64,000 nt of DNA. Origin: Gammaproteobacteria bacterium. Lineage in GTDB: Bacteria > Pseudomonadota > Gammaproteobacteria > SZUA-152. Location: NCBI GenBank assembly GCA_021648485.1, contig JAKISS010000001.1, positions 2,650-66,649 of the forward strand. The letters are read 5' to 3'. Numbering within the stretch: the first letter of the stretch is position 1; each line of letters opens with the position of its first letter. A program made the position numbers and the translations under genes. Shown here piece by piece: positions 32,600-49,855 of the stretch. The notes beneath the pieces are model-generated. The model was given only the letters and a program-made list of their open reading frames with translations, ran no database searches and was not told the origin of the DNA.

Positions 32600-32713
32600 C
32601 CTGTGGTCAGCACGCACATCATACACTTTATTCATCCTTGGTATAACGATTGCCTGGACTGGTGGATTTGACGTTAACGCAGACCAGAGCCGCTTTTCGG
32701 TGAGGAGTTTTCG

Positions 32714-33460: not shown

Positions 33461-33580
33461 TAATGCGCAACGATGGTTTTTGTGCGGTGAACGCGAGCAA
33501 CTTATGCTGAATACAGGTGGATGGCCAAGATTAACATCAGGTTTGCCACCCGCCTGCAACAAACAGGAAAACCGGCTTAT

Positions 33581-33979
33581 ATGTTGAAAACACATTATTT
33601 CATTTTAGCGGCTGTGCTGAGTTTGTTTTTGGCAGGCTGTGACAGCCTGGACCCGGAAGAAATACGCAAGCGTCAACATTTCCCCGGGAAGGATTTTGTC
33701 GCTGATGCTCAACAGGGGGAGACGCTGTTTGTGGCGAATTGTTCACAGTGTCACGGCCCGGCAGGGCAGGGGACACGGCAGGGACCACCACTGGTGGACA
33801 AAATATACCGCCCTGCACATCACGCCGATATTACCTTTCACTGGGCCGTAAAAAACGGTGTCAAACACCACCACTGGGGATTCGGCGACATGCCGCCCAT
33901 CAAGAATGTTTCTCCCGAGGATGTCGGTCATATTATCGCCTATATCCGCCAACAACAGCGTAATGCGGGTATTCAGTAA
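33581..33979 (+). CDS. lipoprotein c-type cytochrome (class I), paralog of 41883-42284
   Basis: Lipobox 'LFLAGC' and the heme motif 'CSQCHGPAGQG'. It shares 'GPPL...Y.P.HHAD.TF..AV..GV..HHW.FGDMPP' with the other copy. Confidence 0.8.
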   Translation: MLKTHYFILAAVLSLFLAGCDSLDPEEIRKRQHFPGKDFVADAQQGETLFVANCSQCHGPAGQGTRQGPPLVDKIYRPAHHADITFHWAVKNGVKHHHWGFGDMPPIKNVSPEDVGHIIAYIRQQQRNAGIQ

Positions 33980-34019
33980 TCATTGAATCGCCCTGTATGC
34001 CGGGTGTTTTTGTCAGCTT

Positions 34020-34823
34020 ATGAATATCATAAACTGGGTTAACCGCCTGCGTGTTCGTCACACACTGACGCAATATCCCATTCCCTATGAATTGTGGGAA
34101 ACTGTGATTAACAGAGCCAGCCTGCTACATGACCTGAGTGCCACAGAGGAAGCCGGTTTGCGCGAACTGGCGACGCTGTTTCTTCATCAGAAGACAATTA
34201 CCGGCGCACAAGGCTTGCTGGTCAGCGACGAAATGAAAGTGATTATTGCCGCTCAGGCAGTGCTTCTGGTGCTGGAGCTTGGGCTGGATTATTACAATGG
34301 ATGGGTTGAGATTATTCTTTACCCAAGTGCCTTTCGGGTCAATCATGGAGATGTTGATCAAAATGGGCTGGTGTCCAGTGACTCACATAATCTCAGCGGA
34401 GAATCCTGGTTGCGCGGGCCGGTGATTCTTTCCTGGGAAGATATCGAGTACGAACTGCATACGCCTCACTCAGGGTATAACGTTGTTGTGCATGAGTTTG
34501 CACATAAACTGGATATGCTGAACGGGCGCGCCAATGGTATGCCACCACTCCATCCCCGTATGGAAATCGATCAGTGGACACGCGCACTCAGTGGTGCATT
34601 CGAAATATTGCAACAGCAAGTCGCGCATCAGCACCCAACACGGATTAATGCTTATGCGGCTACAACGCCTGCTGAATATTTTGCGGTAGTCAGCGAATAC
34701 TTTTTCACTGCACCGGATGTGCTCGGGAAACACTGCCCGGATGTATATTTGCAGTTAACACAATTTTACCGTCAGAATCCTGCTTCACGCCGAGAGCACA
34801 AAATGACAGAAAATGCCCGGTAA
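34020..34823 (+). CDS. mtfA: MtfA-family zinc peptidase (M90, Mlc titration factor A-like)
   Basis: 267 aa. The HExxH motif 'VVHEFAHKLD' sits in the expected position, and 'EYFAVVSEYFF' is typical of MtfA/DUF980. Confidence 0.8.
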   Translation: MNIINWVNRLRVRHTLTQYPIPYELWETVINRASLLHDLSATEEAGLRELATLFLHQKTITGAQGLLVSDEMKVIIAAQAVLLVLELGLDYYNGWVEIILYPSAFRVNHGDVDQNGLVSSDSHNLSGESWLRGPVILSWEDIEYELHTPHSGYNVVVHEFAHKLDMLNGRANGMPPLHPRMEIDQWTRALSGAFEILQQQVAHQHPTRINAYAATTPAEYFAVVSEYFFTAPDVLGKHCPDVYLQLTQFYRQNPASRREHKMTENAR

Positions 34824-34860
34824 TGTAAAGCCGGGTTAAATGGTGTGTCGCGGGCGATAA

Positions 34861-35121
34861 CTATAGCAGTTTTCGTATGCGTTCAAAGCCCTGCTTGATT
34901 TCATCGGCAACGAGTTTGCTTGCTTCAATAACGTTGGATGATGTGTCCGCCGCTTCTTTGCGTAACACATCTGCTTTGCTGCCAAGTTCTTCGAGTTTCT
35001 TTTCAAGTTCAGAAAGTTCGTCACGCACTTCGGCTTTTGCCAAATGGATTTGCAATCGTATTTCATCCTTTTGCTGTTTCAGGCTTTCAATGATGTTGTC
35101 AATATCGCGTTGATGTGACAT
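34861..35121 (-). CDS. hypothetical coiled-coil protein
   Basis: 86 aa, highly charged with heptad-like periodicity. It lies 38 nt downstream of the ABC1 kinase gene on the same strand. Confidence 0.5.
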   Translation of the reverse strand: MSHQRDIDNIIESLKQQKDEIRLQIHLAKAEVRDELSELEKKLEELGSKADVLRKEAADTSSNVIEASKLVADEIKQGFERIRKLL

Positions 35122-35159
35122 GTTTTTCTCCCTTTGTGTGTGGGTTATTTAGATTGAGG

Positions 35160-36824
35160 TTATACACGTCCTGAACGTGATATGCCTCGCAACAGACGAA
35201 AAGTCACCCATAACGCCAGGGTGTAACCACCCAGGGCAATCAGTGGCATACCGGCAATCACTGGTTTTAATTCACTCTGTGCCAACAATGATGACGCAAT
35301 ATAAAGCCCCAGCGCAACCAGTGCCAGAGCTATCCGATTACTGCTGCGATCAACATGGTTTTCAAAATCGCGTAATCCACGATGATGAAGCGGTATTTCG
35401 AATTTTCCTGAGCGCGACCGCCGGAGAAATCTCGCCAGTGCCTTGGGTAATTCCTGGGCAAATACGGATGCTTCGTATTTGAGACGCGCTGAACTTGATC
35501 CCCCTGCTGACTCTTTAAGCGCTGTTGTCATCAGTGTTGCCCCCTTGCTTTGCCAATAATCAGCCATGTTAAATTGCGGGTCCAGACTGCGCAGGGTGGA
35601 TTCCATGATTAACAGGGCGCGCATGATTAACAGTAAATGGTAAGGCATACGCAGGTTGAACCCCCAGCCCATGCGTGCTGCACTCAGCATGGCTGTTGCC
35701 AGTGACCATTCCTGTAATGACACGCTGGCATATTCCTGAATAAGCTCGTTCATTCCTCGTTGTACCTGTTGGCGATCAATTTCTTCGCCCAATAGTCCGA
35801 GGTCGAGGTAGCTATCGAGCAGCCATTCACTGTCCTGATTAATCAATGCCAGAAAAAAGCCGGCCAGTTTTCGGCGTGTGGTGATATCGATGAGTCCCAC
35901 CATGCCAAAATCATGAAAACAAATTTTCCCGTTGTCCATGATAAAGAGATTGCCGGGGTGTGGGTCGGCATGAATGCAACCCATGACAAAAAACTGATGC
36001 AGATAAGCATCTGCAAAATTGATGGCCAGTTGCGGCCCGTCTTTTTGCACGGAAGGGTCGGTGACCAGCCGACCACCGCTCATTTCTTGAACCATCACTG
36101 ACTCGGTGCAAAGTTCCGGAATGGCGGCCGGGATGTGAATCGTTGATGAATCTTTGAAGGCTTCACGAAAACGGTGCGTATTGCGCATCTCCTGACGAAA
36201 ATCCATTTCCTTCATCAGGGTAAGGCCGTTTTCACGTACGATTTCCGGTAGAGAATATTTTTGCAGCTGAGGTGCCAGCGCCAATACAACCCGTAACACC
36301 AGTTTGAGCAGGCGTATATCCTGTGTCACCTGGTTACGCAGATCTGGTCGTCGCACCTTGATGATGACCTTGCGTCCATCCGGCAATATTGCTTTGTGTA
36401 CCTGTGCAATGGATGCTGCTGCCAGGGGAGTGTCGTCAAATTCGGCAAACAGGTTTTCGATAGAATCCCCCAGTGCCTGTTCGATTTCCCGCCGGGCTAT
36501 TTTACTGTCGAAAGCCTGTACGTGATCTTGCAGGTTTTGCAAGGCCTCTACGTAATCATTCGGCAGAATATCCTGACGCAGACTCAGGCCTTGCCCCAGT
36601 TTGACGAATGTTGTTCCCAGTTTTTCCAGCACTTTGCTCAAGCGTTGTGCCGGGCTGATAGCGGGATGTAAAAGATGGCTGTACACCAGTCCCAGCCAAA
36701 CGATGTGGCTACCGATTGCCCAATAAATTTGTATCAGTCTTCGCAAGGTACCCATAGCGTGTTTTGTTTGTCCTGTTTGGTGATCCCGGCCAGTTTTTTG
36801 TCGAATTTTTATTAAGCCTATCAC
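35160..36824 (-). CDS. ABC1/UbiB-family atypical kinase
   Basis: 'AAASIAQVHKA', 'VIIKVRRP', 'HADPHPGNLF' and 'FHDFGMVG' are kinase-like motifs, and there are C-terminal TM helices. The true start may be the internal Met at ~36755. Confidence 0.85.
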   Translation of the reverse strand: MIGLIKIRQKTGRDHQTGQTKHAMGTLRRLIQIYWAIGSHIVWLGLVYSHLLHPAISPAQRLSKVLEKLGTTFVKLGQGLSLRQDILPNDYVEALQNLQDHVQAFDSKIARREIEQALGDSIENLFAEFDDTPLAAASIAQVHKAILPDGRKVIIKVRRPDLRNQVTQDIRLLKLVLRVVLALAPQLQKYSLPEIVRENGLTLMKEMDFRQEMRNTHRFREAFKDSSTIHIPAAIPELCTESVMVQEMSGGRLVTDPSVQKDGPQLAINFADAYLHQFFVMGCIHADPHPGNLFIMDNGKICFHDFGMVGLIDITTRRKLAGFFLALINQDSEWLLDSYLDLGLLGEEIDRQQVQRGMNELIQEYASVSLQEWSLATAMLSAARMGWGFNLRMPYHLLLIMRALLIMESTLRSLDPQFNMADYWQSKGATLMTTALKESAGGSSSARLKYEASVFAQELPKALARFLRRSRSGKFEIPLHHRGLRDFENHVDRSSNRIALALVALGLYIASSLLAQSELKPVIAGMPLIALGGYTLALWVTFRLLRGISRSGRV

Positions 36825-37061
36825 ACCAAAGCTAGCGCCTGTTCTGTATTACATACAGACAAAATGCAGGTCGAGGATAAAAGCCTGAAAATAAAGTTGA
36901 TTCTGATGTCAGGTTGATAACGTTTACATTTCACTTCTAAGTGGAACGATAAATGCAAAAAGTAAAAACACGTCATTTGTTTATTACTTATAATCTGAAA
37001 TGTTAATCATATTTGGCCTTCCAATGGCTTCTATATCTTCAGAATTATAATGTGAATGTGC

Positions 37062-37093
37062 TTGACCTGTAGGCTACATTCAGGTTTTACACT
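37062..37093 (+). promoter_or_regulatory. second, apparently orphan MerR-type promoter (TTGACC-20 bp-TACACT)
   Basis: 'CTTGACCTGTAGGCTACATTCAGGTTTTACACT' has the same hexamers, spacer length and flanks as the site at 24769-24800. It contains the dyads ACCTG...CAGGT and TGTAG-G-CTACA. Confidence 0.45.
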
Positions 37094-37257
37094 GTGAATG
37101 GTGTTATACAGGAGGGCGGATCACTGATGAATATTCTCAGTGACCATTAGGACAGTATGTCGGTATGTATGCTGCCTGGATTTAATTTTATATCGAGAGT
37201 AATCAGGAGACCGCAGGCAGCATAATACAAGCATATCGTATTGTCGAAGTGTGTTAG

Positions 37258-37374
37258 TTTCCGGTGATTAAAAAAGAAGGCGGTTACACGATTGATTACG
37301 AATATTGTAAAGGGTGTGGTATTTGCGCAGAGGAGTGCCCGTGCGGACATATTGATATGGAATCTGTGGTGTAA
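37258..37374 (+). pseudogene. C-terminal remnant of a 4Fe-4S ferredoxin-domain protein (PorD/2-oxoacid:ferredoxin oxidoreductase delta-like)
   Basis: The open frame reads '..[36 protein letters not shown]' with a canonical CxxCxxCxxxCP motif. It is preceded by an in-frame TAG and has no plausible full-length partner. Confidence 0.5.
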
Positions 37375-37441
37375 GGATGGTGGAGTTAAGGTGTTTATGA
37401 TTTTTTGTGTTCCACTCTCATTCAACATACGGCAAAACCGT

Positions 37442-37471
37442 AGGGTGGAACAAGCGCAGCGGTTCCACCAA
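37442..37471. repeat. 30-bp hairpin-forming repeat, copy 1
   Basis: AGGGTGGAACAAGCGCAGCGGTTCCACCAA. The internal stem is GGTGGAAC/GTTCCACC. Its exact reverse complement is at 37659-37688. Confidence 0.85.
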
Positions 37472-37658
37472 CAGGCTATTAAGGAACAACAAATCGCCTC
37501 TGTGCCACGACCGCTGACAAAAAAATCAAAACCCTGCACCAAAAAACCGATTGTCTGAAACAGGAGAAAAACTCTCTTATGTAACAACGACGCACCGGAA
37601 AATGGTGAGTCAAGGTGGACGTTGATAGTTGATCGAATCTTGAAGATGCCCGTAGCGT

Positions 37659-37688
37659 TTGGTGGAACCGCTGCGCTTGTTCCACCCT
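37659..37688. repeat. 30-bp hairpin-forming repeat, copy 2 (inverted)
   Basis: TTGGTGGAACCGCTGCGCTTGTTCCACCCT, the perfect reverse complement of 37442-37471. Confidence 0.85.
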
Positions 37689-37786
37689 GCCCAGGGTATA
37701 CCTTTAAGGGGAGAGAGTTGGGGTAAGGGGTGAATTGCACAGGGTAATGTGATGCTATTGGTCAGGAATTCAGAGGAGAAGAAATA

Positions 37787-37876
37787 ATGGAATGGTTAAT
37801 ACTTTTGTTGGTGGCTTGCTGTATTACCATGATCTTTTTTATGTGTGGCGGGCATGGGGAATCAGGTGATAAATGA
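37787..37876 (+). CDS. candidate 29-aa small membrane protein (below the ORF-track cut-off)
   Basis: ATG preceded by 'GAGGAG' at an 8-nt spacing. Encodes 'MEWLILLLVACCITMIFFMCGGHGESGDK'. The stop lies 31 nt before the oxidoreductase start. Confidence 0.35.
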   Translation: MEWLILLLVACCITMIFFMCGGHGESGDK

Positions 37877-37907
37877 TAAATATTCGTTCTGACTTCGGAA
37901 AAAAATA

Positions 37908-39056
37908 ATGACGGAAACAAAAATAAATCAGGAAACGCCTGTAGAAATCGCTGGTGCCGGTCCCGCCGGACTGGCAGCAGCAATCACTCTGGCCCATGCC
38001 GGGCGTCAGGTGATCGTACATGAAGCACATAAAAGAGTGGGGCATCGTTTTGGTGGTGACTTTCAGGGGCTGGAAAACTGGACAACTCAGAATGATGTGC
38101 TCAACGAATTTAAAGCACTTGGTTTGACGACAGACTTTACAGCCATGCCAGGTTGTAACGGGACGGCTTTTGATTCCGCCCGAAAATCCTATGAAATCAA
38201 AAGTGATGAACCTCTGTTTTATCTGATTGAGCGTGGCCCCGGTCCCGATACGCTTGATAGTGCCTTGTTAAAGCAGGCGCAATCGCTTGGTGTCGAGGTT
38301 CGTTTTAACAGTCGTCTGCGTCAAATGGCCGGTGAAGGCATTCTCGCCGCCGGGCCGCGTGCTGCTGATGCCATCGCCGTGGGCTATCACTTTGAGACCG
38401 ACATGACAGACGGTTATTGGGTTATCTGTGACGATGACCTGGCTCCTCAGGGTTATGCCTATCTCCTGGTAATGAAGGGCAGAGGCACGGTTAAAAGCTG
38501 CATGTTTTCCAGTTTTAAACAGGAGAAATGTTATGTGCAGCGAACGGTGGAAGCCTTTCAGGAGCTGGTTGGTCTGGAGATGAAAAATCCCCGGCCTCAT
38601 GGTGGCAGTGGTAATTTTCGTATTCCGCGTAGTGCTTATAGCGGCCCGCATCCCCTGGTGGGGGAACAGGCCGGTTTTCAGGATACGTTATGGGGGTTTG
38701 GTATGCGGCTGGCGATTTCATCCGGCGTACTGGCGGCAAGAAGTTTGTTGAATGATGAAAACTACGACATGCTCTGGCAGCATGAGCTGCGGCCGCAAAT
38801 GGAAACGTCAATTGTTAACCGCAGTCTGTTTTCATTGCTGGGAAATCGGGGTTACGGCTGGTTTCTGGGGAATCAGCTTGCCAGGCCGGATTTACGAGCA
38901 TCATTGCGACGGCAGTATCAGCCGTCCCTGATTAAGCGGTTACTTGGCCCGTGGGCCAGGCATCGTTATAGCAGCCGTCGAAAAGATATCACTTGTGATC
39001 ACATTGACTGTTACTGTGTCTGGTGTCGGGAAGAGTGTTGTGTACATGAGCAGTGA
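37908..39056 (+). CDS. FAD-dependent oxidoreductase (geranylgeranyl-reductase-like) with Cys-rich C-terminal tail
   Basis: Dinucleotide-binding 'VEIAGAGPAGLAAAITLAHAGRQVIVHE'. The C-terminal 'CDHIDCYCVWCREECCVHEQ' has 7 Cys in 20 aa. Confidence 0.8.
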   Translation: MTETKINQETPVEIAGAGPAGLAAAITLAHAGRQVIVHEAHKRVGHRFGGDFQGLENWTTQNDVLNEFKALGLTTDFTAMPGCNGTAFDSARKSYEIKSDEPLFYLIERGPGPDTLDSALLKQAQSLGVEVRFNSRLRQMAGEGILAAGPRAADAIAVGYHFETDMTDGYWVICDDDLAPQGYAYLLVMKGRGTVKSCMFSSFKQEKCYVQRTVEAFQELVGLEMKNPRPHGGSGNFRIPRSAYSGPHPLVGEQAGFQDTLWGFGMRLAISSGVLAARSLLNDENYDMLWQHELRPQMETSIVNRSLFSLLGNRGYGWFLGNQLARPDLRASLRRQYQPSLIKRLLGPWARHRYSSRRKDITCDHIDCYCVWCREECCVHEQ

Positions 39057-39085
39057 AACAAAAAAATAGCCACAGGTCATTGATA

Positions 39086-39264
39086 ATCCTAAATTAATCA
39101 GTTAAACCGTAGCGAGAGCGACTAAGGTGCGGAAGATAAAGCGTTTTTCAGGTTATTTTGGACGAAAGCGTATCACCCATACGGTGAGTTCAACATGTTC
39201 TGAAAAATGCTTTAGATTCTGTGCATTAGGCGCTCGCAGTAGATTTAACTGATTAATTTAGGAT
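39086..39264 (+). mobile_element. 179-bp MITE-like palindromic element, copy A
   Basis: Perfect 21-bp terminal inverted repeats ATCCTAAATTAATCAGTTAAA / TTTAACTGATTAATTTAGGAT. The interior is an imperfect long hairpin. The reverse complement of 41195-41373 is identical except for 1 nt. Confidence 0.7.
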
Positions 39265-39265
39265 A

Positions 39266-39682
39266 ATGAAAGTCAGCGAATTATCCAGACTAACCCGGGT
39301 AACACCGGCAGCGATACGTCATTACGTAAGGGTTGGACTGTTGCACCCAAAACGAAATCCCGTCAATGATTATCAACTATTCAGCGATTTTGATGTCAAA
39401 AGAGTTAACTTTATCCGTCAGGCGAAAGGGCTGGGGTTCTCCTTGAGTGATATCCAGGAAATTTTCAAACACGGAAAACAGGGGTAGTCACCTTGTCCCA
39501 CTGTCCGGGATATTATTCACCAGCGTATTGAAGATAACCGGGTGCAACTGGCTGAACTGAATATTTTGACAAAACGGATGAAAAAGGCATTGGAAAAATG
39601 GAAAACCATGCCGGATGGGGAGCCGAATGGTGATGAAATTTGTCACCTTATTGAGACAGTCGCAAAACCACTGTCACTATAA
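39266..39682 (+). pseudogene. MerR-family regulator interrupted by an in-frame TAG (paralog of 24350-24772)
   Basis: 'MKVSELSRLTRVTPAAIRHYVRVGLL...HGKQG*SPCPTVRD...EICHLIE' is collinear with the intact paralog ('...MAGGSPCPQVRE...SVCHLIE'). The TAG at 39485-39487 sits where the paralog has Gly. The same frame continues to the TAA at 39680-39682. Confidence 0.75.
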
Positions 39683-39723
39683 ATAGTGTGTCAGAGGGAA
39701 ATTAAAACAGAAGGAGAAACGAT

Positions 39724-40218
39724 ATGAATCAGAATGAAGATCCGGTCAAAGACCCGGTGTGCGAAATGATGGTGAACCCGCAGGATAATGTGATTGAATA
39801 TCAGAAAATGTCTTTTGCGTTTTGCTCAAAGCAGTGCCAGGAACGTTTCCTGGCTAACCCGCATTTATATATCGGCATACCAGGCATTAAAGCACCTAAA
39901 CAGGAAGGGCGGGAAGTGATCAAGCGGCGCAGGATGCATCTGTCTCATACCTTGTCCCCGGATGAAATTACGCTGGTCAGTGAAGCATTACGGGCAATGA
40001 TGGGCATCAAGGATCTTGCGATTACGCAAGACACTGTCGAGATTACCTATGATCTTCTACAGGCCACATTGAAGCAGATTGAAGACAAACTGATTGAGAT
40101 TGGTATTCAATTGGGTGGCGGCTGGACAGAACGCCTGCAACGTGCGTTTTTACAGGAAAGTGAGGAATTGCAGGTCGAAAGTATGGAAGTAACGACAACC
40201 CCTCACTATCGGGTTTAA
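39724..40218 (+). CDS. YHS-domain protein with ferredoxin-like (HMA-like, no CxxC) C-terminal domain
   Basis: N-terminal 'DPVCEMMV...FAFCSKQCQERFLANPHLY'. SD 'AAGGAG' upstream. Confidence 0.75.
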   Translation: MNQNEDPVKDPVCEMMVNPQDNVIEYQKMSFAFCSKQCQERFLANPHLYIGIPGIKAPKQEGREVIKRRRMHLSHTLSPDEITLVSEALRAMMGIKDLAITQDTVEITYDLLQATLKQIEDKLIEIGIQLGGGWTERLQRAFLQESEELQVESMEVTTTPHYRV

Positions 40219-40244
40219 CTTTTTGTTATCAAGGGTATTGAACA

Positions 40245-40408
40245 TATACCCGCAGCGATTGAAATTCAGGTACTCATTGCACGCTCTCTTCATTCCGTGG
40301 CTGCGTTGAAATTCCTCACAATAGACCGGCTATTACTCGTCATTTCGCCTTGCCATGAAATGAATATGACGCACACTGAACACCTAAATTTCAAACGCTA
40401 CGGGTATA
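40245..40408. repeat. ~164-bp imperfect palindromic intergenic element (third family)
   Basis: Termini TATACCCGCAGCGATTGAAATTCAGGT / ACCTAAATTTCAAACGCTACGGGTATA (3 mismatches). The interior halves are partly complementary. It lies between convergent genes. Confidence 0.5.
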
Positions 40409-40530
40409 GCATTGGAGTATTTGTTTTATGTTGCGGCATTATTTTACGGGCTTGGCGGGCGTATATTTTTACATAACGCTATACCTGTAACATTTGAGGT
40501 CCATTATCCCGGCCCTGCCGACAATATTGC

Positions 40531-41196
40531 TCAATGATTCTTTGGGCGGAAGCCATCCGGGAATATTTTTTTGATGAGCACAATCCCAAGAGAAAACGCG
40601 CCCAATAACAAAAGCGTGATTGCAATAGTGTTGGTTTCGGTGGAGGCCAGTTCGCTGCCGAAATGCGCCAATAGAAAGCTGCTGGGAATAATGCCCGCCA
40701 GTGTCGCCAGGGCAAATCGCCAAAAAGTCAATGCGGTAACGCCAGCCGCATAACTGACCATGTCGAAAGAAATAAATGGCAACAGCCGGGACACAAATAC
40801 AATGCTCATTAACGTCGTCTGTGAACCCAGCAAGTACTTGTCATAACGATCACCTAACCCGTTTTTGAGAGCCTCGGCACCTGACAGACGAGCGATAAAA
40901 AAAGCAATAATTGCACCCAGTCCTGCACCTATTACTACATATACGGTTCCCAGGTAATGACCATAAACTGCACCTGATACCAGTGCGATGGGCGCGCTGG
41001 GGACAGGACTCATCACAATGGCCAGTGTCAGCAGGCCAATGATAACGAGCGGGCCAAAGATGCCCAGTTGTTGTATCCAGGCTTTGAGTGCACTGCCATC
41101 ACCCAGGAAATCAATTATACCTTTATGCGAGAGTACAAAATATCCCGCAATAATCAGCGCAATAATAATGCCGGGTTTTATCAGCCGTGACATCAT
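40531..41196 (-). CDS. TVP38/TMEM64 (DedA-related, SNARE-associated) family membrane protein
   Basis: 221 aa, polytopic, with a family-typical 'SPVPSAPIALVSGAVYG' re-entrant region. The start codon overlaps the last 2 nt of MITE copy B. Confidence 0.75.
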   Translation of the reverse strand: MMSRLIKPGIIIALIIAGYFVLSHKGIIDFLGDGSALKAWIQQLGIFGPLVIIGLLTLAIVMSPVPSAPIALVSGAVYGHYLGTVYVVIGAGLGAIIAFFIARLSGAEALKNGLGDRYDKYLLGSQTTLMSIVFVSRLLPFISFDMVSYAAGVTALTFWRFALATLAGIIPSSFLLAHFGSELASTETNTIAITLLLLGAFSLGIVLIKKIFPDGFRPKNH

Positions 41197-41373
41197 CCTA
41201 AATTAATCAGTTAAATCTACTGCGAGCGCCTAAGGCACAGAATCTAAAGCATTTTTCAGAACATGTTGAACTCACCGTATGGGTGATACGCTTTCGTCCA
41301 AAATAACCTGAAAAACGCTTTATCTTCCGCACCTTAGTCGCTCTCGCTACGGTTTAACTGATTAATTTAGGAT
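41195..41373 (-). mobile_element. 179-bp MITE-like palindromic element, copy B (inverted relative to A)
   Basis: The reverse complement is identical to 39086-39264 apart from one A/C difference. Confidence 0.7.
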
Positions 41374-41393
41374 CATACATTGTCTACGGATGG

Positions 41394-41876
41394 TTATTGT
41401 CGTTGGCGTTGCAAAGCTTCATTGTTGATGTCCGCCTGAATTTTTCGTGTTTCTTCAGGCCAGCGACTTTTTATGTAGGCAATAACCGCCCAGATATCGT
41501 CGTCACTGAGGGTGTCTCTCCAGGCTGGCATGTCACTTTTGTAATCATCTGGGGCATAGGGCGGTATCATTCCCAGTTTGGTGATACCGAACAGAAGCTC
41601 GTCAGCATGATGCCAGGTATGCCCGGTTTCATCATGGGGCGGAGCAGGTAATTTGCCGTCGGGTTTCCGTATTCGCCAGTTTTTCTGCCCTTCAAGATTG
41701 GCTCCGTGACACAATGAGCAAAAGCGTTTGTAGACAAGTTCACCGCGTTTTAGCTGTTCATTCTCGGTGTTTTCTGCCTGTGCAACCATTGGCACAACCA
41801 TTGTCATACATAATAAAGTCACGTACGCAGGGCAGCGCATGATTTTAAAAAACATATTTGAGTTTTCCTTGCGCAA
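41394..41876 (-). CDS. c-type cytochrome (class I, monoheme)
   Basis: Signal peptide and the heme motif 'CSLCHGANLEGQ'. Downstream 'HTWHHADELLFGITK...MPAW' provides the distal Met region. Confidence 0.8.
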   Translation of the reverse strand: MRKENSNMFFKIMRCPAYVTLLCMTMVVPMVAQAENTENEQLKRGELVYKRFCSLCHGANLEGQKNWRIRKPDGKLPAPPHDETGHTWHHADELLFGITKLGMIPPYAPDDYKSDMPAWRDTLSDDDIWAVIAYIKSRWPEETRKIQADINNEALQRQRQ

Positions 41877-41882
41877 TGGAAA

Positions 41883-42284
41883 TTAATAAATACCGTTTTC
41901 ACGCTGTAACCAGCGAATAAAGGGTAAAAGAACATCAACATCTTTTCGTGTTGCACCTGGCACCGGTGGCATGTCGCCAAAGCGCCAGTGATGAGCTTGT
42001 ACACCTTTGAGCACTGCCCGGTAAAATGTCGGATCAGCATGGTGTGACGGCTTGTAAAATCCGTGCATCAACGGCGGACCCTGAGGGGTGCCATTTCCCC
42101 ATTTTCCGTGACAGCTGGAACACAGGTCTCTAAATTTTTCCATGCCGACAACATATTTTTCGGGTACTTTCGGTGGGTTGTCAATGGAATATTTAGTGGC
42201 AGCGATCACGCCCGACAGGGGAGCCAACGATAAAATTGCCAATGTAAGCAAGCTACAAAATAAAAATCGGAATTTCATCATCAT
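41883..42284 (-). CDS. c-type cytochrome (class I), paralog of 33581-33979
   Basis: Signal peptide, 'CSSCHGKWGNG', and the shared 'GPPLMHGFYKPSHHADPTFYRAVLKGVQAHHWRFGDMPP'. Confidence 0.8.
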   Translation of the reverse strand: MMMKFRFLFCSLLTLAILSLAPLSGVIAATKYSIDNPPKVPEKYVVGMEKFRDLCSSCHGKWGNGTPQGPPLMHGFYKPSHHADPTFYRAVLKGVQAHHWRFGDMPPVPGATRKDVDVLLPFIRWLQRENGIY

Positions 42285-42298
42285 TACCTTTTTGTAAT
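42283..42298. promoter_or_regulatory. possible second copper box (ATTAC-N6-GTAAT)
   Basis: ATTACCTTTTTGTAAT has the same half-sites and spacing as the core of 20342-20365 (ATTACAACATTGTAAT). It lies in the divergent region between the cytochrome genes and the Cus-like operon, but it overlaps the first of three consecutive ATGs of the cytochrome gene. Confidence 0.3.
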
Positions 42299-42499
42299 AT
42301 TAAAGAAACGGGGTTGTTTGCGTGTATTATATCGTCAAATTGATTGTGTATGTGATGCATTTGATGAGTCGGATGCAAGTTACACACAGGAAGGAACCTA
42401 CGCTTTGTGATCAGGTCAGACTGCACAATGTCCAGCGGCATTATGTATAGGCAATTGTTGACAAAATCACATACTGGCACCTACACTTTATCCCTAATC

Positions 42500-42868
42500 A
42501 TGGCTATCTTTATACAACATCTTCGTCTACTGCTGATCATTGCCATCGTGCTGTCACCTGTACAGCCTGTGTTTGCTGTGCAAGCTGACGATTCGATGGC
42601 TCTCTTGATGAGCGCAGAGGCAGCTATAGTCAGTGATATTGCCCAAAGCGATACGGTGAAAATGCTGGATGATGCTTGCAACAAGCAGGGGAAATGCAGC
42701 AATTGTCAGGATGTCAATCATTGCAGCAGTTGTCCTGTGTCGCTGGGAATTCCCCAGATTCTGTCGAAACATACCGAACTGAGTACGCATATTCAACTCA
42801 CTGTTTCAGGCGTTTCGCTCTACAGCGCTGATCTCTTGCCGGATTACCGGCCTCCACGTTACTCCTGA
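42500..42868 (+). CDS. small secreted Cys-rich protein with 'LY..LL..RPP' tail (CzcI/DUF2946-like), leader of the Cus-like operon
   Basis: Signal peptide 'MAIFIQHLRLLLIIAIVLSPVQPVFA', the Cys cluster 'CSNCQDVNHCSSC', and the tail 'VSLYSADLLPDYRPPRYS'. The start is uncertain (the track uses a GTG at 42407). Confidence 0.55.
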   Translation: MAIFIQHLRLLLIIAIVLSPVQPVFAVQADDSMALLMSAEAAIVSDIAQSDTVKMLDDACNKQGKCSNCQDVNHCSSCPVSLGIPQILSKHTELSTHIQLTVSGVSLYSADLLPDYRPPRYS

Positions 42869-43061
42869 TTTTTAACCTGCGGGGTTTGCCCGCATGGCTG
42901 CGCTTGCGCGCGCGTGTTATGAATATTTCAGGAGAATCTGATGATTCTGTTCCATTTGGCAGCTTCCGGTCAGAAAATGACTGGCATTACATTATTTTCA
43001 GGATTGCTCACAGCATTTCATTATGCTGTGGGTTTTATCTGCTTCAAGGAAGGAGGGTGGT

Positions 43062-44384
43062 ATGCCGTTTAAGCAATTATTTTCTCTGTTGGCGATTAGT
43101 GGTTTGCTTATTGTCAGCAGTGTCAACGTTGTGCTTGCAGCATCGGAGCCAAAGCAACTGTCTCTGGCGGATGCGGTGGCCATTACCCTGACGGATCACC
43201 CAGGGCTGGCGGCGATGAAAACCCGTGCCGAAGCGCTCGCCGCAGTGCCTTCACAACAAGGTTCGCTGCCTGACCCCCGCTTGTCATTGAACATGCTGAA
43301 TTTACCTATCGATAGTTTTGATTTTAATCAGGAAGGCATGACTCAGTTACAGGTCGGATTCAGTCAGATGTTGCCATTTCCCGGCAAACTTGGGTTACGC
43401 GAGGCCGTTGCCGAGCATGAAAGCACAGCGGCCCGCTGGCAGGTTGAAGAATTACGTTTGAAGCTGGTGCGTGATGTGAAAACGGTGTGGTGGAATCTGT
43501 ATTTCACGGATCGTGCGCTGGAAATCGTGGCTCGAAACAGGGGGCTGTTGCGTCAGTTTGTCGATGTTGCACAAACTAAATACAAGGTGGGCAAGGGGCT
43601 GCAACAGGATGTTCTGCTTGCGCAACTGGAATTGTCCAAATTGCATGATCAAAGCATCAATTTGCAGGGGTTGCGGCGCAATCAGGTTGTTCAACTGAAT
43701 ACCTTGCTGGACCAGCCCACCAATAGCCCATTGCAATTACCCCAACGAATAACGGAAACGCTGGCGGAGATTACTGATGAACAAGGGTTACTCAGTTATG
43801 CCGCAAAAACCCGTCCTGTGCTGGCTGCGGCTCACAGTAAAATTGATGCAGCCCGTGCCCGCCTGGGTCTGGCAAAAAAGAGTTATTCCCCTGATTTTAC
43901 GTTAGGTGCTGCGTATGGTTATCGTGGCGGAGAAAATATCGATGGCAGCAGCCGTGATGATTTTCTCTCTGTGATGTTCAGTATGAATCTGCCTATTTAT
44001 GCCGGAGCCCGGCAAGACAAGGCTGTCGATCAGCGTACTTCTCAGGTATTGCAAAACCGGTATGAACTGGATGATGCCCACAGCAGGGTAGCGGCCGAGG
44101 TATCGCGCGCATTGGCTGACTATCAGCAATCCCGCGAACAGGTCAGCTTGTTTAAACAGGGCATTATTCCCCAGGCCGCGCAGACCGTTGCTTCTATGCT
44201 GGCGGCTTATCAGGTGAGCAAAGTGGATTTTCTGAATCTGGTGCGTGCGCAGATTACCTTATTCAATTACGAGACCCGTTACTGGAAGGCTTTGTCCCGG
44301 GGCAATCAGGCGCTGGCACGATTAGCTGCGGCTGTTGGCAAGCAAAGTTTGTTTGATGGCGATGAAAAAAATAACTGGAATTAG
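43062..44384 (+). CDS. cusC: TolC-family outer-membrane efflux protein (CusC-like)
   Basis: SD 'AAGGAGGG' and a signal peptide. Two OEP repeats with the coiled pattern typical of heavy-metal RND outer-membrane factors. First structural gene of an OMF-MFP-RND operon. Confidence 0.8.
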   Translation: MPFKQLFSLLAISGLLIVSSVNVVLAASEPKQLSLADAVAITLTDHPGLAAMKTRAEALAAVPSQQGSLPDPRLSLNMLNLPIDSFDFNQEGMTQLQVGFSQMLPFPGKLGLREAVAEHESTAARWQVEELRLKLVRDVKTVWWNLYFTDRALEIVARNRGLLRQFVDVAQTKYKVGKGLQQDVLLAQLELSKLHDQSINLQGLRRNQVVQLNTLLDQPTNSPLQLPQRITETLAEITDEQGLLSYAAKTRPVLAAAHSKIDAARARLGLAKKSYSPDFTLGAAYGYRGGENIDGSSRDDFLSVMFSMNLPIYAGARQDKAVDQRTSQVLQNRYELDDAHSRVAAEVSRALADYQQSREQVSLFKQGIIPQAAQTVASMLAAYQVSKVDFLNLVRAQITLFNYETRYWKALSRGNQALARLAAAVGKQSLFDGDEKNNWN

Positions 44385-44429
44385 TATTTTTAATGCTAAT
44401 TGATTAGCACGAAATTTTGAGGTGAATTC

Positions 44430-45929
44430 ATGAACAAACAAACTGTGATGGTCGCAATACTGGTTGCATTGGCCGTGGGTGGCGGTGGTGGATACTGGTT
44501 TGCATCACGTATGGCTCCTGATGCCATGAGCACGGCTGGCGATGCCAAACAGGAACGCAAAGCCCTGTTTTATCGAAATCCTATGAACCCGGCCATTACG
44601 TCTCCGGTGCCTGCGCAGGACGAGATGGGTATGGATTATATTCCGGTTTATGCGGACGACAATACACCCAAAGAGCGCAAGGCACTGTTTTACCGGAATC
44701 CCATGAACCCGGCTATTACCTCACCAGTACCCGCTCAGGATGAAATGGGCATGGATTATATTCCGGTTTATGCGGACGAGGACAATGCCGGAGATGCTCC
44801 CGCAGGTACGGTGAAAATTGATCCGGTTACTGTACAAAACATTGGTGTGCGTACGGCCATCGTAGAGCAACGTACCCTGAGTCGGCATATTCGTGCAGTG
44901 GGTCGGGTTGCGTACAACGAGGAACGTTTATCCCGTCTGCATCCTAAGACTGAGGGTTGGATCAAAGAGCTGCGCATTGACAAAACGGGTTCACCGGTCA
45001 AAAAAAATGACATCCTGTTAAGTATTTATGCGCCGCAACTGGTTGCCAGCCAGGAAGAATATCTGTTGGCAATGAAAAGCAAACAGATTTTGGCAGACAG
45101 TCCTTTCGACGATATTCGTCAGGGAGCCATTGATCTGGAGAAAACGGCACGGGAACGTTTGGAATTGCTGGATATGGCTGAGCACCAGATTCGAGAGTTG
45201 GAGCGCACGCACGAGATAAAAAAGTATCTGCATATTCATTCACCTTTTAACGGAATCGCAATAAAAATTGGAGCCCGTGAGGGACAGTACGTTACCCCCA
45301 AAACAGAATTATATATGTTGGCCGACCTGTCCAAAATATGGGTGTATGTTGATATTTACGAATATGAATTGCCCTGGATTACGGTGGGTGATCAGGTCGA
45401 GATGGAATTAACGGGTGTGCCTGGCAGAGTTTTCACAGGCCGTCTTGCCTATATTTATCCCTATGCAGAGGCCAGAACCCGCACGATCAGAGTGCGTCTG
45501 GTTTTTGATAACAAAGAGTTGTTGTTGAAACCCGATATGTTTGCCGAGGTCAGCATTGCCGCGAGTCGGCAGATTGCTGCCGTAGTGGTGCCCGCCGAAG
45601 CTGTGGTGCGCTCAGGGACTCGTGAACAGGTATTCGTGGTGCGCGGTGCCGGAAAATTTGAACCGCGTGAAGTCAAAATCGGTATCACTACCAGCGGTGT
45701 CACCCAGATACTGACCGGTCTGAAGGTTGGTGAAGAAGTAGTGACCTCCTCCCAGTTCCTTATTGATTCAGAGTCCAAGTTGCGTGAAGCGACCGCGAAA
45801 ATGATGGAGATACTGAATGCGGGGCAGGGTGATAACAACTCCGCAAGTGTATTTGATGATATGTCTATGGATGATATGTCTATGGATGATATGTCTATGG
45901 ATGATATGTCGCCGGAAAAAGCAAAATAG
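44430..45929 (+). CDS. cusB: RND periplasmic adaptor (CusB-like) with duplicated N-terminal tri-Met module and C-terminal (DDMSM)n tail
   Basis: Membrane-fusion-protein core (a 'barrel-sandwich' region 'VKKNDILLSIYAPQLV...', and a beta-barrel 'VPAEAVVRSGTREQVFV'). Positioned between the OMF and the RND pump. Confidence 0.85.
   Translation: MNKQTVMVAILVALAVGGGGGYWFASRMAPDAMSTAGDAKQERKALFYRNPMNPAITSPVPAQDEMGMDYIPVYADDNTPKERKALFYRNPMNPAITSPVPAQDEMGMDYIPVYADEDNAGDAPAGTVKIDPVTVQNIGVRTAIVEQRTLSRHIRAVGRVAYNEERLSRLHPKTEGWIKELRIDKTGSPVKKNDILLSIYAPQLVASQEEYLLAMKSKQILADSPFDDIRQGAIDLEKTARERLELLDMAEHQIRELERTHEIKKYLHIHSPFNGIAIKIGAREGQYVTPKTELYMLADLSKIWVYVDIYEYELPWITVGDQVEMELTGVPGRVFTGRLAYIYPYAEARTRTIRVRLVFDNKELLLKPDMFAEVSIAASRQIAAVVVPAEAVVRSGTREQVFVVRGAGKFEPREVKIGITTSGVTQILTGLKVGEEVVTSSQFLIDSESKLREATAKMMEILNAGQGDNNSASVFDDMSMDDMSMDDMSMDDMSPEKAK
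44553..44792 (+). repeat. 120-bp (40-codon) tandem duplication inside cusB-like gene
   Basis: Both copies encode an identical 35-aa 'ERKALFYRNPMNPAITSPVPAQDEMGMDYIPVYAD'. The DNA differs at 16 third-codon positions. Confidence 0.95.
45855..45910 (+). repeat. perfect 15-bp tandem repeat x3.7 (GATGATATGTCTATG) encoding (DDMSM)n
   Basis: Read directly. It lies at the extreme 3' end of the cusB-like gene. Confidence 0.95.
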
Positions 45930-45935
45930 GGGCAC

Positions 45936-48900
45936 ATGATGATTCAAAATATTATTAACGCCTCGTTGCGTGATAAATTCCTGGTACTGATTGCCACAGC
46001 ATTAATCGTCGTGGCCGGTATATTTGCCGTCAAAAACACACCACTGGATGCCATTCCGGATCTTTCTGATGTGCAGGTTATTGTCTTTACCGAATACCCG
46101 GGACAGTCACCGCAGGTTGTGGAAGATCAGGTGACCTATCCCTTGACCACAGCAATGCTGGCGGTACCCTCTGCCAAAGTGGTGCGTGGTTATTCTTTCT
46201 TTGGTTTTTCCTTTGTCTACATTATTTTTGAAGACGGTACTGATATGTACTGGGCCCGTTCGCGGGTGCTGGAGTATCTAAACTATGTTAGCTCCCGGTT
46301 ACCTGCCGGACTATCGCCTTCGCTGGGGCCGGATGCTACCGGTGTCGGTTGGATTTACGAATATGCCCTGGTGGATCGCACTGGCAAACATGACCTGGCA
46401 CAACTGCGTTCCTTGCAGGACTGGTATTTACGTTATCCCTTGCAAACAGTACAGGGTGTTTCCGAAGTGGCCTCGGTAGGCGGTTATGTCAAACAATATC
46501 AGGTGGAGGTTGACCCCAATGCTTTGTTAGCCTACGGCATTCCGTTGTCCAAAGTAAAATATGCTATTCAGCGTTCCAATAATGATGTAGGTGGCAAACT
46601 GGTAGAGATGGCCGAGACCGAATACATGGTGCGCGGCAAAGGCTACATTCGTTCCATTGCGGACCTGGAAGTTATTCCGGTGGGCGTTGATGCCAATGGC
46701 ACACCCATACGCCTGATGGATGTGGCGAACATCCAGATTGGTCCCGAATTACGGCGTGGTGTGGCAGAGCTTAATGGCGAAGGTGAAGTCGTCGGTGGCG
46801 TGGTGATTATGCGCTTCGGCGAAAATGCCTTGGCCACCATCGAACGGGTACGTGAAAAGCTGGAAGAACTGAAAAGCGGTTTGCCGGAAGGCGTAGAGAT
46901 TGTGCCGGTCTATGACCGTGGCGACCTCATCGAACGCGCAGTGAATAACCTGGCTGAGAAACTCATCGAAGAATCCATTGTAGTGAGTCTTATCTGCATC
47001 TTGTTTTTGTTGCATGTCCGTTCGGCGCTGGTGGCTGTTATTAGCTTGCCTGTAGGGATTCTAATGGCGTTTATCATCATGAAATGGCAAGGCATTAATG
47101 CCAACATCATGTCGCTCGGTGGTATTGCCATCGCCATCGGAGCCATGGTGGATGGTGCCATTGTGATGATTGAAAATGCCCATAAACACCTGGAACACGC
47201 AGGTAATAAAAAGGGCCGTGAACTGACCCTGCCCGAACGCTGGGAAGCGGTGGCCTCGGCCTCACGCGAAGTGGGCCCCGCGTTGTTTTTCTCACTATTG
47301 ATTATCACCGTATCCTTCCTGCCGGTATTTACGCTTCAAGCCCAGGAAGGGCGTTTGTTCGCACCGCTGGCGTTCACCAAAACCTATGCCATGGCAGCAG
47401 CAGCCATTCTTGCGATTACTCTGGTGCCGGTATTAATGGGCTATTTTATTCGCGGCAGGATCATGCCCGAAGCCAAAAACCCGGTGAATCGTTTTCTGCA
47501 TGCCATTCATTCGCCGACACTGAAAAGTGCCATTCAGTGGCGTTGGTTGACGCTGTTTGTGGCGGGAACATTGTTACTGGTAACGGCCTGGCCGGTGAAC
47601 AAACTTGGCAGTGAATTCATGCCGCCGCTGGATGAAGGTGACATCCTGTACATGCCCACCACCTATCCGGGATTGTCGATTACCAAGGCCAAGGAAATTT
47701 TGCAACAGACAGACAAAATCCTCTACACCTTTCCGGAAGTGCATCAGGTTTTCGGCAAAGCGGGGCGTGCTGAAACGGCTACCGACCCGGCACCGCTGGC
47801 GATGCTCGAAACCACCGTACGACTAAAGCCTCGGTCTGACTGGCCGAACCCGGACAAGACCACCAAGGAACTGATGGCCGAAATGGATGCCGCGATCAAA
47901 TTCCCTGGTGTCGCCAATGCCTGGACCATGCCGATCAAGACCCGCATTGACATGTTGTCCACGGGTATCAAAACACCGGTTGGTATCAAAGTCAGCGGAC
48001 CGGACCTCAACGTACTGGAAGAGGTGGCAGGTAATATTGAACGGGCGCTAAAAACCATGCCGGATACATTGTCCGCCTTTGGAGACAAAGCAGCGGGCGG
48101 TTATTACCTGGACTTTGATATCGACCGTGTTGCGGCGTCGCGTTACGGTCTTACTGTGGGTGACGTGCAGGACATTATTCAAAGTGCCATCGGTGGTATG
48201 AACGTCACGCAAACGGTAGAAGGACTGGAGCGTTATCCCGTTAATGTGCGTTATCCGCGTGAGCTGCGTGACAACATGGAACAGTTAAAGCGGGTATTGA
48301 TTCCCACACCCACGGGAACGCAGATTCCACTGGCGCTAGTGGCCGAATTGATATTACGACGCGGGCCACCTGCCATCAAAAGTGAAAACTCACGACCCAA
48401 TGCCTGGGTTTATGTGGACATCAAGACTTCGGATATTGGTGGTTATGTGGCCGATGCCAAAGAGGTGTTGAAAGCCCAGGTGAAAATTCCGGCGGGTTAC
48501 ACTCTGGTATGGTCCGGGCAGTTTGAGTACATGGAACGTGCTGCTGAACGTCTGCGTATCGTGGTGCCAGTGACACTGCTGGTGATCTTCTTGTTGTTGT
48601 ATCTCAACTTTCGCAACGTTTCGGAACCGTTGGTGGTTATGCTTTCCATTCCCTTCGGACTGATTGGTGGTTTTTGGCTGATTTACTGGCTGGGTTTCAA
48701 TATGTCAGTGGCGGTGGCAGTGGGCTTCATTGCCCTGGCGGGTGTAGCAGCGGAAATCGGCGTGCTGGTATTAACCTTTATTGATCATGAAATCGCGCGC
48801 CGCCGTCGCGACAAAGGAGCAGCGTTGGATGCAAAAGAAATCATGGAGGCAGTACATGCAGGTACCTCGGAACGTGTACGACCGATTGTGATGACGGCTA

Positions 48901-49106: not shown

Positions 49107-49272
49107 ATGTCCCACATAATTGTAATTAAGCGGTTTTATTCCTCTCCTCTTGATGAGGGGGAAACTGGGAGGAAGGATGATATTACCGAACCTGATTCAA
49201 GCCTTCCCCCAACTCTTTGAAGTATATAAAAAGACGGAATATTAATATTACATATCAACAGGAGAATGAAAG

Positions 49273-49782: not shown

Positions 49783-49855
49783 GCAAATAATTACATGAGT
49801 GCCAGGCAGCTCAGTTTTTGCGCTGCCTGATACCCTGTATTTTCAGGAGCAGTCC

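Follow-up and report, generated by a model that had tools for sequence, protein, structure and literature searches.

[quoted passage not shown] Correia elements duplicate TA. The 175-bp element described here has all of the features common to these MITEs but is unrelated to them in sequence, is flanked by a 5-bp duplication at the target WTNAW, and shows no end-generated promoter in a consensus scan. Known MITEs can affect transcripts via RNase III or RNase E (PMC10969869; PMC2649163). A likeness in size and target is offered by bcr1 of the Bacillus cereus group, an element of about 155 bp with 5-bp direct repeats (TTTAT, which fits WTNAW), a distribution that differs between close relatives and a structure kept by compensatory changes (PMC3184786; PMC6542083). 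In contrast to our element, bcr1 belongs to Firmicutes, is unrelated in sequence, adopts a two-stem-loop cruciform-like fold rather than a single long hairpin, and has been shown to be transcribed; moreover, the available text of these two papers names no parent insertion sequence (IS) for bcr1, whereas the present MITE has a candidate parent.

That candidate parent points to the IS1380 family (IS1247, ISEcp1, IS1678), prokaryotic relatives of piggyBac. The ends of piggyBac are CCC...GGG; the CC...GG ends of the MITE recall them, and its T-T-N-A-A-like target recalls the TTAA target of piggyBac. Members of the IS1380 family typically measure about 1.55-2 kb, contain a single ORF and make a direct repeat of 4-5 bp. 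IS1247, for example, measures 1672 bp and makes a 5-bp direct repeat (PMC3281130), and IS1380 transposases have served as an outgroup for piggyBac (PMC10813416). IS1380 goes unmentioned in a review of prokaryotic MITEs from 2024 (PMC10969869), and no link between a MITE and IS1380 appears in 15 listed titles and abstracts out of 21 papers naming both.

We analyzed a 64-kb stretch of gammaproteobacterial DNA (the window) in which two copies of the MITE, in inverted orientation, enclose 1.9 kb containing merR-like, YHS-domain and TVP38/VTT genes. We conclude, with a probability of roughly 0.88, that the two copies are separate insertions of one non-autonomous 175-bp MITE that shares its end with an IS probably of the IS1380 family. 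The pair is thus an ordinary kind of feature and not a mobile gene cassette.

Ends and target-site duplications of the two copies

The near-identity of the inverted pair recorded in the initial annotation was borne out by direct comparison, since 178 of 179 positions agree between 39086-39264 and the reverse complement of 41195-41373, and at the sole mismatch copy A has A (39225) and copy B has C (41234, read on the strand of copy A). The inverted repeat extends further, to 186 nt that are 98% complementary (39083-39268 and 41191-41376). The 21-mer ATCCTAAATTAATCAGTTAAA occurs exactly four times in the window, at the four element ends, with none expected from 100 shuffles. Because conservation across copies elsewhere begins at CC and stops at GG, the true length of both window copies is 175 bp (Table 1). 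The ends were therefore perfect inverted repeats as described, but 19 rather than 21 nt long, the outer 2 nt lying outside the MITE. No ORF of at least 50 aa is contained in the 175 bp except for ORFs that enter from the flanks, and copy B is 100% identical over 177 nt to a MITE copy in another MAG (L016). MITE copies with 99-100% identity are present in the MAGs JAKIUF01 and JAJRWO01.

Table 1. Coordinates of the MITE copies, their duplicated targets and the neighboring genes in the window
Feature	Position	Strand or orientation	Description
FAD-dependent oxidoreductase gene	37908-39056	+	Upstream of copy A on the same strand; stop 29 nt from the merR ATG before insertion
Copy A left 5-bp target-site duplication	39083-39087		ATAAT; identical to 39263-39267; single ATAAT at the orthologous place in L022
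MITE copy A	39088-39262	+ (reference orientation)	175 bp, CC...GG; terminal inverted repeats at 39088-39106 and 39244-39262
Copy A right 5-bp target-site duplication	39263-39267		ATAAT; its final AT begins the merR-like ATG (39266-39268)
merR-like pseudogene	39266-39682	+	Interrupted in frame by TAG (39485-39487) at a position that is Gln in an intact homologue
YHS-domain protein gene	39724-40218	+	Pfam PF04945; 93% identical to P0001 on L022-L024
Second palindromic element	about 40245-40408		Unrelated to the MITE
TVP38/VTT (DedA-type) membrane protein gene	40531-41196	-	Pfam PF09335; last of a cyt c - cyt c - VTT run; same arrangement in L022
Copy B 5-bp target-site duplication	41192-41196		ATCAT on +, ATGAT on -; holds the first TVP38/VTT ATG; identical to 41372-41376
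MITE copy B	41197-41371	- (inverted orientation)	175 bp
Copy B second 5-bp target-site duplication	41372-41376		ATCAT
Two cytochrome c genes	41394-42284	-	Upstream of copy B; same arrangement in L022

Target-site duplications, which the initial annotation could not find, do exist: ATAAT is found twice at copy A and ATCAT twice at copy B. Since the WTNAW target is nearly palindromic, such a duplication resembles an extension of the inverted repeat, and it was probably overlooked for this reason. The target was defined from public genomes and metagenomes, in which 62 of 74 unique end pairs of any length are flanked by a perfect 5-bp duplication. In these 62 perfect cases position 2 of the duplicated pentamer is always T and position 4 always A; TTAAA/TTTAA accounts for 27, and ATAAT/ATTAT and TTCAA/TTGAA for 10 each. 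About half of the 12 end pairs that lack a perfectly matching duplication mismatch at several positions.

Gene context and empty sites in relatives

A homology search identified relatives (L022, L023 and L024) that are collinear with positions 32209-50388 of the window at 84-93% nucleotide identity and have the same gene order (merR, YHS, VTT, cyt c, cyt c, then Cus genes). Both MITE sites are empty in all three, with exactly the MITE plus one duplication missing; the reconstructed empty sites give gap-free alignments (72/82 and 82/90), and L022 has a single ATCAC at the site orthologous to copy B. In the window the pre-insertion gaps were 29 nt (oxidoreductase to merR) and 17 nt (second cytochrome c to TVP38/VTT); in the relatives, which have no MITE there, 20 bp separate the cytochrome c stop from the VTT start. 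Exact-protein look-ups of the window TVP38 and YHS proteins returned no record, and the distant YHS homologues P0011 and P0012 lie in other gene contexts and were of no use for locating empty sites. The amber stop noted earlier in the merR-like ORF and the further palindromic element between the copies are both present (Table 1), and the merR copy of L022 has a 232-bp internal deletion.

One possible reading in the initial annotation was that the elements supply the start context of the genes that they abut. Contact with the merR ATG (from 39266) and the first TVP38/VTT ATG (41196-41194) is real, but the bases concerned belong to the target and its duplication and not to the MITE. Because these start codons lie within the target and are present at the empty sites, they predate the insertions, which counts against this reading. 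Moreover, the AGGA of the MITE lies only 2 nt upstream of the merR ATG and of the second TVP38 start codon and directly adjoins the first one, and a consensus scan found no promoter-like or terminator-like site in either window copy. The position of the insertions has its source in the available targets: the copy-B spacer offers one usable WTNAW site, which is the one used, and the copy-A spacer three, all within 9 nt of the ATG, so that both copies touch an ATG because the usable pentamers in these gaps adjoin or overlap a start codon.

Under the separate-insertion reading, a transposase encoded elsewhere in the genome, the putative mobilizer, would bind both MITE ends, excise or copy the element and insert it at a WTNAW pentamer that becomes duplicated on each side. 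Copy A entered the oxidoreductase-merR gap and copy B the gap between the second cytochrome c gene and TVP38/VTT. Each insertion would move the original ribosome-binding region 180 nt away, and RNA read through from the upstream genes, which may occur, would contain a hairpin of about -80 kcal/mol. Displacement and hairpin together would probably reduce rather than enhance the expression of TVP38 and of merR, which is a pseudogene already.

The MITE family and its candidate autonomous partner

A search with the 19-mer end recovered 21 loci from genome assemblies and a further 100 from metagenomes, yielding 78 end pairs, of which 39 span exactly 175 bp. Distinct insertion sites of 150-260 bp in public genomes and metagenomes number 56; the element is thus not confined to its two sites in the window. 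Neither did the MITE match plasmid records, nor its end 19-mer viral contigs. By crude ORF calls, copies between tandem gene pairs are co-oriented in 9 cases and opposed in 6, and 9 copies each lie in convergent and divergent gaps. A gene-relative orientation bias was not significant by the same calls (upstream neighbor on the same strand in 18 cases and on the opposite strand in 8; tandem pairs 9 versus 6), nor was one relative to replication, judged by the GC skew of the flanks as a proxy, which was positive in 12 of 33 cases (p = 0.16). Start-codon adjacency is not a habit of the family, since an ORF of at least 60 aa starts within 12 nt of the element at only 6 of the 56 sites; apart from the window copies, these ORFs are short and three of the four use TTG or GTG starts, leaving the window copies as the only ones among the 56 sites that abut credible start codons. 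A larger composite unit considered at L118 was also rejected, its solitary ends being truncated fragments 13.9 kb apart with mismatched flanks (TTTAA versus TTAAG).

A search for an autonomous element, as the initial annotation had suggested, yielded candidates with one matching end. Two ISs, one at L014 (1082-2772; the same element as L062) and one in L032, are both 1691 bp long, and their left end, CCTAAATTAATCAGTTAAA, is identical to the MITE end at 19 of 19 nt. They are flanked by 5-bp duplications (ATCAA and TTCAT, respectively) of the same type as those of the MITE, and a 5-bp duplication is also made by IS1247 (PMC3281130). The single ORF encodes a 520-aa DDE transposase of IS1380-like type, which scores 83.8 bits against Pfam PF13701 (E = 9.9e-24; cut-off 34.7). 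Its best NCBIfam model is NF033539 (IS1380) at 141 bits, which is below the cut-off of 180 for that model, with the next family at 34 bits. The partner fits the IS1380 pattern in size, single ORF and direct repeat, but its transposase is only about 25% identical (tblastn) to the annotated transposases of the IS1380-like IS1678; the best plasmid match is 46% identical. The window itself holds only the non-coding derivative, no transposase of IS1380-like kind being encoded within its 64 kb.

Both MITE ends are copies of the IS left end, and this 19-nt end is all that the MITE and the IS have in common, the right end of the IS differing from the MITE end at several positions. Since the interiors are unrelated, the MITE is not a simple deletion derivative of the IS. 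Decay of the IS itself is represented at L017 by a copy with an internal deletion, and an IS end (L001) occurs in the same MAG as a MITE copy (L005). The designation "MITE-like" given to the pair at the outset is accordingly well founded: the elements have defined inverted ends and target-site duplications, many copies elsewhere, empty orthologous sites, and an IS with a matching end and the same type of duplication. We infer that an IS1380-like transposase moves the MITE.

The hairpin and alternative readings of the pair

The long hairpin described for the element was confirmed and is very stable. The + strand of copy A folds at -83.8 kcal/mol (z = -11.4) and the other strand at -66.4 kcal/mol (z = -9.6); the 175-nt core folds at -80.8 kcal/mol. 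Rfam and tRNA scans found nothing in or at the elements. Under one reading, the MITE owes its retention to a transcript that folds into this hairpin on one strand. The hairpin would then act on neighboring genes in one of three ways: it would be processed by an RNase III-type enzyme, it would uncouple the halves of an operon, or it would mask or present a start codon. Covariation conserves the hairpin across the family, with 97.4% of cells paired and 25 of 70 pairs changed on both sides, compared with 11.7 +/- 1.9 two-sided pairs in shuffles and 5-8 in slid controls. One strand folds better by 3-40 kcal/mol in all 26 aligned copies (by at least 15 in 23 of them), and in hairpin copies that are longer and more divergent the better strand is ahead by 20-34 kcal/mol. 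When pairs are mapped in a strand-neutral way, departures of the G·U type exceed those of the A·C type by 29 to 8 (p = 7.5e-4), and mutational bias is unsupported as a source of this excess since the overall substitution spectrum is about symmetric. In both window copies the strand that folds better has the same sense as the flanking operon, and MITEs with effects at the RNA level have precedents (PMC10969869; PMC2649163; PMC3184786), the closest analogues for such a role being Correia, ERIC or bcr1 elements. Against this reading, orientation relative to neighboring genes looks random by the crude ORF calls given above (tandem, convergent and divergent alike), the copies contain no promoter-like or terminator-like sites and no Rfam match, and credible start codons are abutted by the window copies only. 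On balance we consider it unlikely that the MITE is kept as a functional RNA, and we advance only tentatively the related proposal that the hairpin of the family is under selection on one strand only, working as a structured single-stranded molecule.

Far less probable is that the pair serves as a recombination substrate through which the 1.9-kb segment is flipped or removed as a switch. Inverted repeats of 175 bp that are 99.4% identical and 1.9 kb apart make this plausible in principle, and of the 12 of 74 pairs elsewhere that lack a perfect duplication, about half have multiple mismatches, as expected after recombination between copies. At this locus, however, the duplications match at both copies, whereas the inverted state would swap the inner flanks to give ATAAT/ATGAT; the assembled state is therefore the original orientation. 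Inversion would also detach both gene sets from their operons, so that a useful switch is hard to see, and there is no recombinase gene nearby.

The suggestion that the two copies are the arms of a composite transposon that brought merR-YHS-TVP38 here has some points in its favor: two intact, near-identical inverted copies with intact outer ends do enclose 1.9 kb, and members of the IS1380 family can mobilize DNA next to them (PMC3281130). It is contradicted as an account of origin, however, and retains almost no probability. Each copy has its own matched duplication, where insertion as a composite should leave a single duplication flanking the whole pair; L022-L024 have the same genes, order and neighbors but neither MITE; and the genes between the copies are the final parts of two convergent operons, which lay 17-29 nt from their upstream genes before insertion.

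The separate insertions, each with its own duplication and an empty site in a relative of the same gene order, thus reduce the apparent mobile metal-resistance cassette to native genes at the ends of two convergent operons, with the MITEs as recent hitch-hikers lodged in the spacers of these operons, in a region already in decay. More broadly, the MITE belongs to a family that is widespread and recently active in uncultured marine Gammaproteobacteria, has a clear WTNAW target and is tied to a divergent, piggyBac-related element probably of the IS1380 family. If the one-strand selection were true, the MITE would not be passive DNA recognized by its ends but would act most simply as RNA, read through from neighboring genes or made from the MITE itself, and in the window both hairpins would separate the last genes of their operons from those upstream, with a start codon at the foot of the stem. 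The whole family would then constitute an RNA module whose carrier is a bacterial transposon system related to piggyBac, and the one-strand bias, if it holds, would add another bacterial MITE constrained as an RNA or single-stranded DNA structure.

Two separate insertions

The initial annotation had described a near-identical inverted pair of long hairpins, and both points are borne out. Recomputing the repeats gave an inverted repeat of 186 nt (39083-39268/41191-41376, 98% complementary) with a single difference over the coordinates first given (39225, A, versus 41234, C on the copy-A strand), and copy A folds at -83.8 kcal/mol on the + strand (z = -11.4) and at -66.4 kcal/mol on the - strand (z = -9.6). 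Across the 64 kb, the four matches to the 21-mer ATCCTAAATTAATCAGTTAAA are the four element ends, with 0 expected from 100 dinucleotide-preserving shuffles. Of the 21-bp terminal repeats reported initially, only the inner 19 nt are the element's end: conservation across copies runs from CC to GG, and the two outer bases differ from copy to copy and are directly repeated on either side of each copy, so that the element is 175 bp long. The duplication mimics two extra inverted-repeat bases because the target is near-palindromic. Target-site duplications, which had been missed, are thus present as 5-bp direct repeats: copy A stands between two ATAAT and copy B between two ATCAT. The feature is genuine, and it is a MITE. 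Since each copy has its own matched duplication, the two were inserted separately. Inversion of the enclosed segment between copies A and B is not favoured. The matched duplications place the assembly in the un-inverted state, since inversion would leave ATAAT/ATGAT at each copy.

A homology search with the window's YHS protein reached three contigs (L022, L023 and L024) that are collinear with 32209-50388 at 84-93% nucleotide identity, in the order merR - YHS - VTT - cyt c - cyt c - (two small ORFs) - OEP - CusB - CusA. At both sites these contigs are without exactly the MITE and one duplication copy, and once these are removed the window aligns gap-free over both junctions (site A 72/82, site B 82/90). 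The cytochrome c stop lies 20 bp from the VTT start in L022; before insertion, the window had 17 nt there and 29 nt from the oxidoreductase stop to the merR ATG. The 1.9 kb was thus not brought in by the MITEs as a unit; it consists of the downstream ends of two convergent operons that already stood there. The composite, MITE-bounded cassette proposed initially is contradicted by the empty sites together with the separate matched duplications.

Features of the window in and around the element pair
Feature	Position (strand)	Observation
MITE copy A	39088-39262 (+)	
MITE copy B	41197-41371 (-)	
FAD oxidoreductase gene		flanks the pair on the left
MerR-type regulator gene	39266-39682	enclosed; in-frame TAG at 39485-39487
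YHS-domain protein gene		enclosed
Second palindromic element	40245-40408	about 164 bp, unrelated to the MITE, in the gap from YHS to VTT; bounded by imperfect 26-nt repeats ATACCCGCAGCGATTGAAATTCAGGT / ACCTAAATTTCAAACGCTACGGGTAT; missing from L022/L023 (gap about 60 bp there versus 312 bp); related piece at locus L002 538-599, 86% identity
VTT/TVP38 protein gene	40531-41196 (-)	enclosed
Two cytochrome c genes		flank the pair on the right
Third MITE-like element	37442-37688	247 bp, perfect 30-nt inverted ends AGGGTGGAACAAGCGCAGCGGTTCCACCAA; in ORF-poor stretch 36830-37900; related sequences at L006 (about 826-1010) and L022 (6967-7087)
Palindrome, may be another MITE-like element	10698-10870	173 nt; 73-nt arms 73% complementary, 27 nt between arms
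CusB-like periplasmic adaptor gene	44430-45929	about 37 residues duplicated in tandem close to the N-terminus (ERKALFYRNPMNPAITSPVPAQDEMGMDYIPVYAD, twice), in L022 too (12089-12322); DDMSM repeat at the C-terminus

A MITE family and its autonomous partner

Scanning the inner 19 nt against one genome per species gave 21 loci, mostly in gammaproteobacterial MAGs, and metagenomes gave 100 further loci. Across both sets there are 78 end pairs (39 of exactly 175 bp) and, for lengths of 150-260 bp, 56 distinct insertion sites. A perfect 5-bp duplication flanks 62/74 unique end pairs, and because the duplications have T at position 2 and A at position 4 without exception, the target is WTNAW (TTAAA/TTTAA 27, ATAAT/ATTAT 10, TTCAA/TTGAA 10, others 15). 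A copy in another species-level MAG (L016) matches copy B at 100% over 177 nt, other close copies reach 99.3% (L006) and 94% (L019), and copies with 94-96% identity to copy A occupy more than 30 sites in the Ga0316202-204 metagenomes; such near-identity points to recent activity of the family. Viral contigs and plasmid records yielded no copy of the MITE. A 415-bp variant (L072 3955-4369) has an insert of about 240 bp close to one of its ends and keeps its TTGAA flanks, and one contig (L118) contains two solitary, truncated ends separated by 13.9 kb (530-592 and 14363-14390) with unmatched flanks.

The initial annotation had suggested looking for an autonomous IS with the same terminal repeats, and an IS with the same left end does exist. 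Two elements, one at L014 1082-2772 (L062 being this element again) and one in L032, are each 1691 bp, begin with 19 nt identical to the MITE end, are flanked by 5-bp duplications (ATCAA, TTCAT) and contain one 520-aa ORF each. The protein matches Pfam PF13701 above cut-off (E = 9.9e-24); among NCBIfam transposase models IS1380 is best at 141 bits, below that model's 180-bit cut-off, with the next at 34. In plasmid records, annotated IS1380-like IS1678 transposases match at 25% identity and the top match is an unnamed Polaromonas transposase (46%). IS1247 of the IS1380 family is similar in length (1672 bp) and likewise has a direct repeat of 5 bp (PMC3281130), and IS1380 transposases serve as the prokaryotic outgroup of piggyBac (PMC10813416). 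The two ends of the IS differ, and the interior of the MITE bears no relation to the IS; the MITE is thus a palindrome made of two IS left ends and no simple deletion derivative. Decay forms include an internally deleted IS joining transposase residues 4-54 to 384-517 (L017 534-1150) and an IS end (L001) in the same MAG as a MITE copy (L005). Many MITE copies with 94-96% identity to copy A belong to Ga0316204, the metagenome series that also yielded the L032 element; no such transposase was found within the 64-kb window. The MITE family appears undescribed: IS1380 goes unmentioned in a review of MITEs in prokaryotes from 2024, and no link between the two was found in the 15 titles and abstracts listed out of 21 papers naming both.

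Start codons in a decaying region

Both start codons predate the insertions; the empty sites in L022 read ...ATTGATAATGAAAGT... and, on the minus strand, ...GTGATGGCACGG.... Spacer B has one WTNAW site only, ATCAT, overlapping the ATG, and spacer A has three, each at most 9 nt from the ATG. Any insertion tolerated by the cell had to fall at the start codon, since the usable sites in these very short spacers sit there. The 44 copies examined all lie between ORFs at widely varying distances, which rejects start-codon contact as a family trait, and among the sites examined none but the window copies directly adjoins a credible gene start. Target choice in such short spacers accounts for the start-context reading proposed initially. 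Insertion moved the old upstream region 180 nt away, and TTTAGG and the duplication now precede the ATG. AGGA, 2 nt upstream of the merR ATG and of the second TVP38 ATG and immediately next to the first TVP38 ATG, is within a perfect 19-bp stem. In neither copy was a promoter-like or terminator-like site found. Expression of the downstream genes would more likely be lowered than aided.

The gene content, including the merR amber stop, is as first described. This TAG stands where an intact homologue (L028) has a Gln codon, and merR in L022 (7469-7657) has a 232-bp internal deletion (window 39419-39650), two independent lesions that each break the gene. The neighbouring FAD oxidoreductase gene survives in L022 as a remnant of 112 bp (window 38224-38335). 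The surroundings of the pair are decaying, and four MITE-like elements of three kinds (37442-37688, copies A and B, and about 40245-40408) lie within 4 kb; in the remaining 60 kb one other clearly MITE-like palindrome was found (10698-10870), and two shorter hairpin-like repeats are also listed there. Relaxed constraint is a sufficient reason for this pile-up.

An apparent pairing constraint on one strand of the hairpin

An alignment of 26 distinct copies (copy A and 25 loci) shows the hairpin conserved: 97.4% of its cells are paired and two-sided changes occur at 25/70 pairs, compared with 11.7 +/- 1.9 in shuffles and 5-8 in partner-slid versions. The strand equivalent to the copy A + strand folds 3-40 kcal/mol better than its complement in 26/26 copies (by at least 15 in 23/26), and the same strand is better by 20-34 kcal/mol in longer, more divergent hairpin copies. 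Using a strand-neutral pair map, in which one arm is aligned against the other and departures are counted from Watson-Crick majority pairs, there are 29 departures of G·U type versus 8 of A·C type (p = 7.5e-4); single-sided changes were C>T 10 and A>G 16 versus G>A 4 and T>C 4. Simple mutational bias does not account for the G·U excess, since the substitution spectrum across all columns is about symmetric. Orientation is random relative to neighbouring genes (crude ORF calls) and to flank GC skew (12/33 positive). Pairing thus seems to matter on one strand, as RNA or single-stranded DNA. Among described elements, bcr1 from the Bacillus cereus group comes nearest, a transcribed element of about 155 bp with 5-bp TTTAT repeats and compensatory changes (PMC3184786; PMC6542083), and Correia and ERIC elements exemplify the effects of such hairpins on transcripts (PMC10969869; PMC2649163). 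The family is a further example of a well-known kind of element, and the apparent constraint on one strand of its hairpin is the sole lead that could add interest to it.
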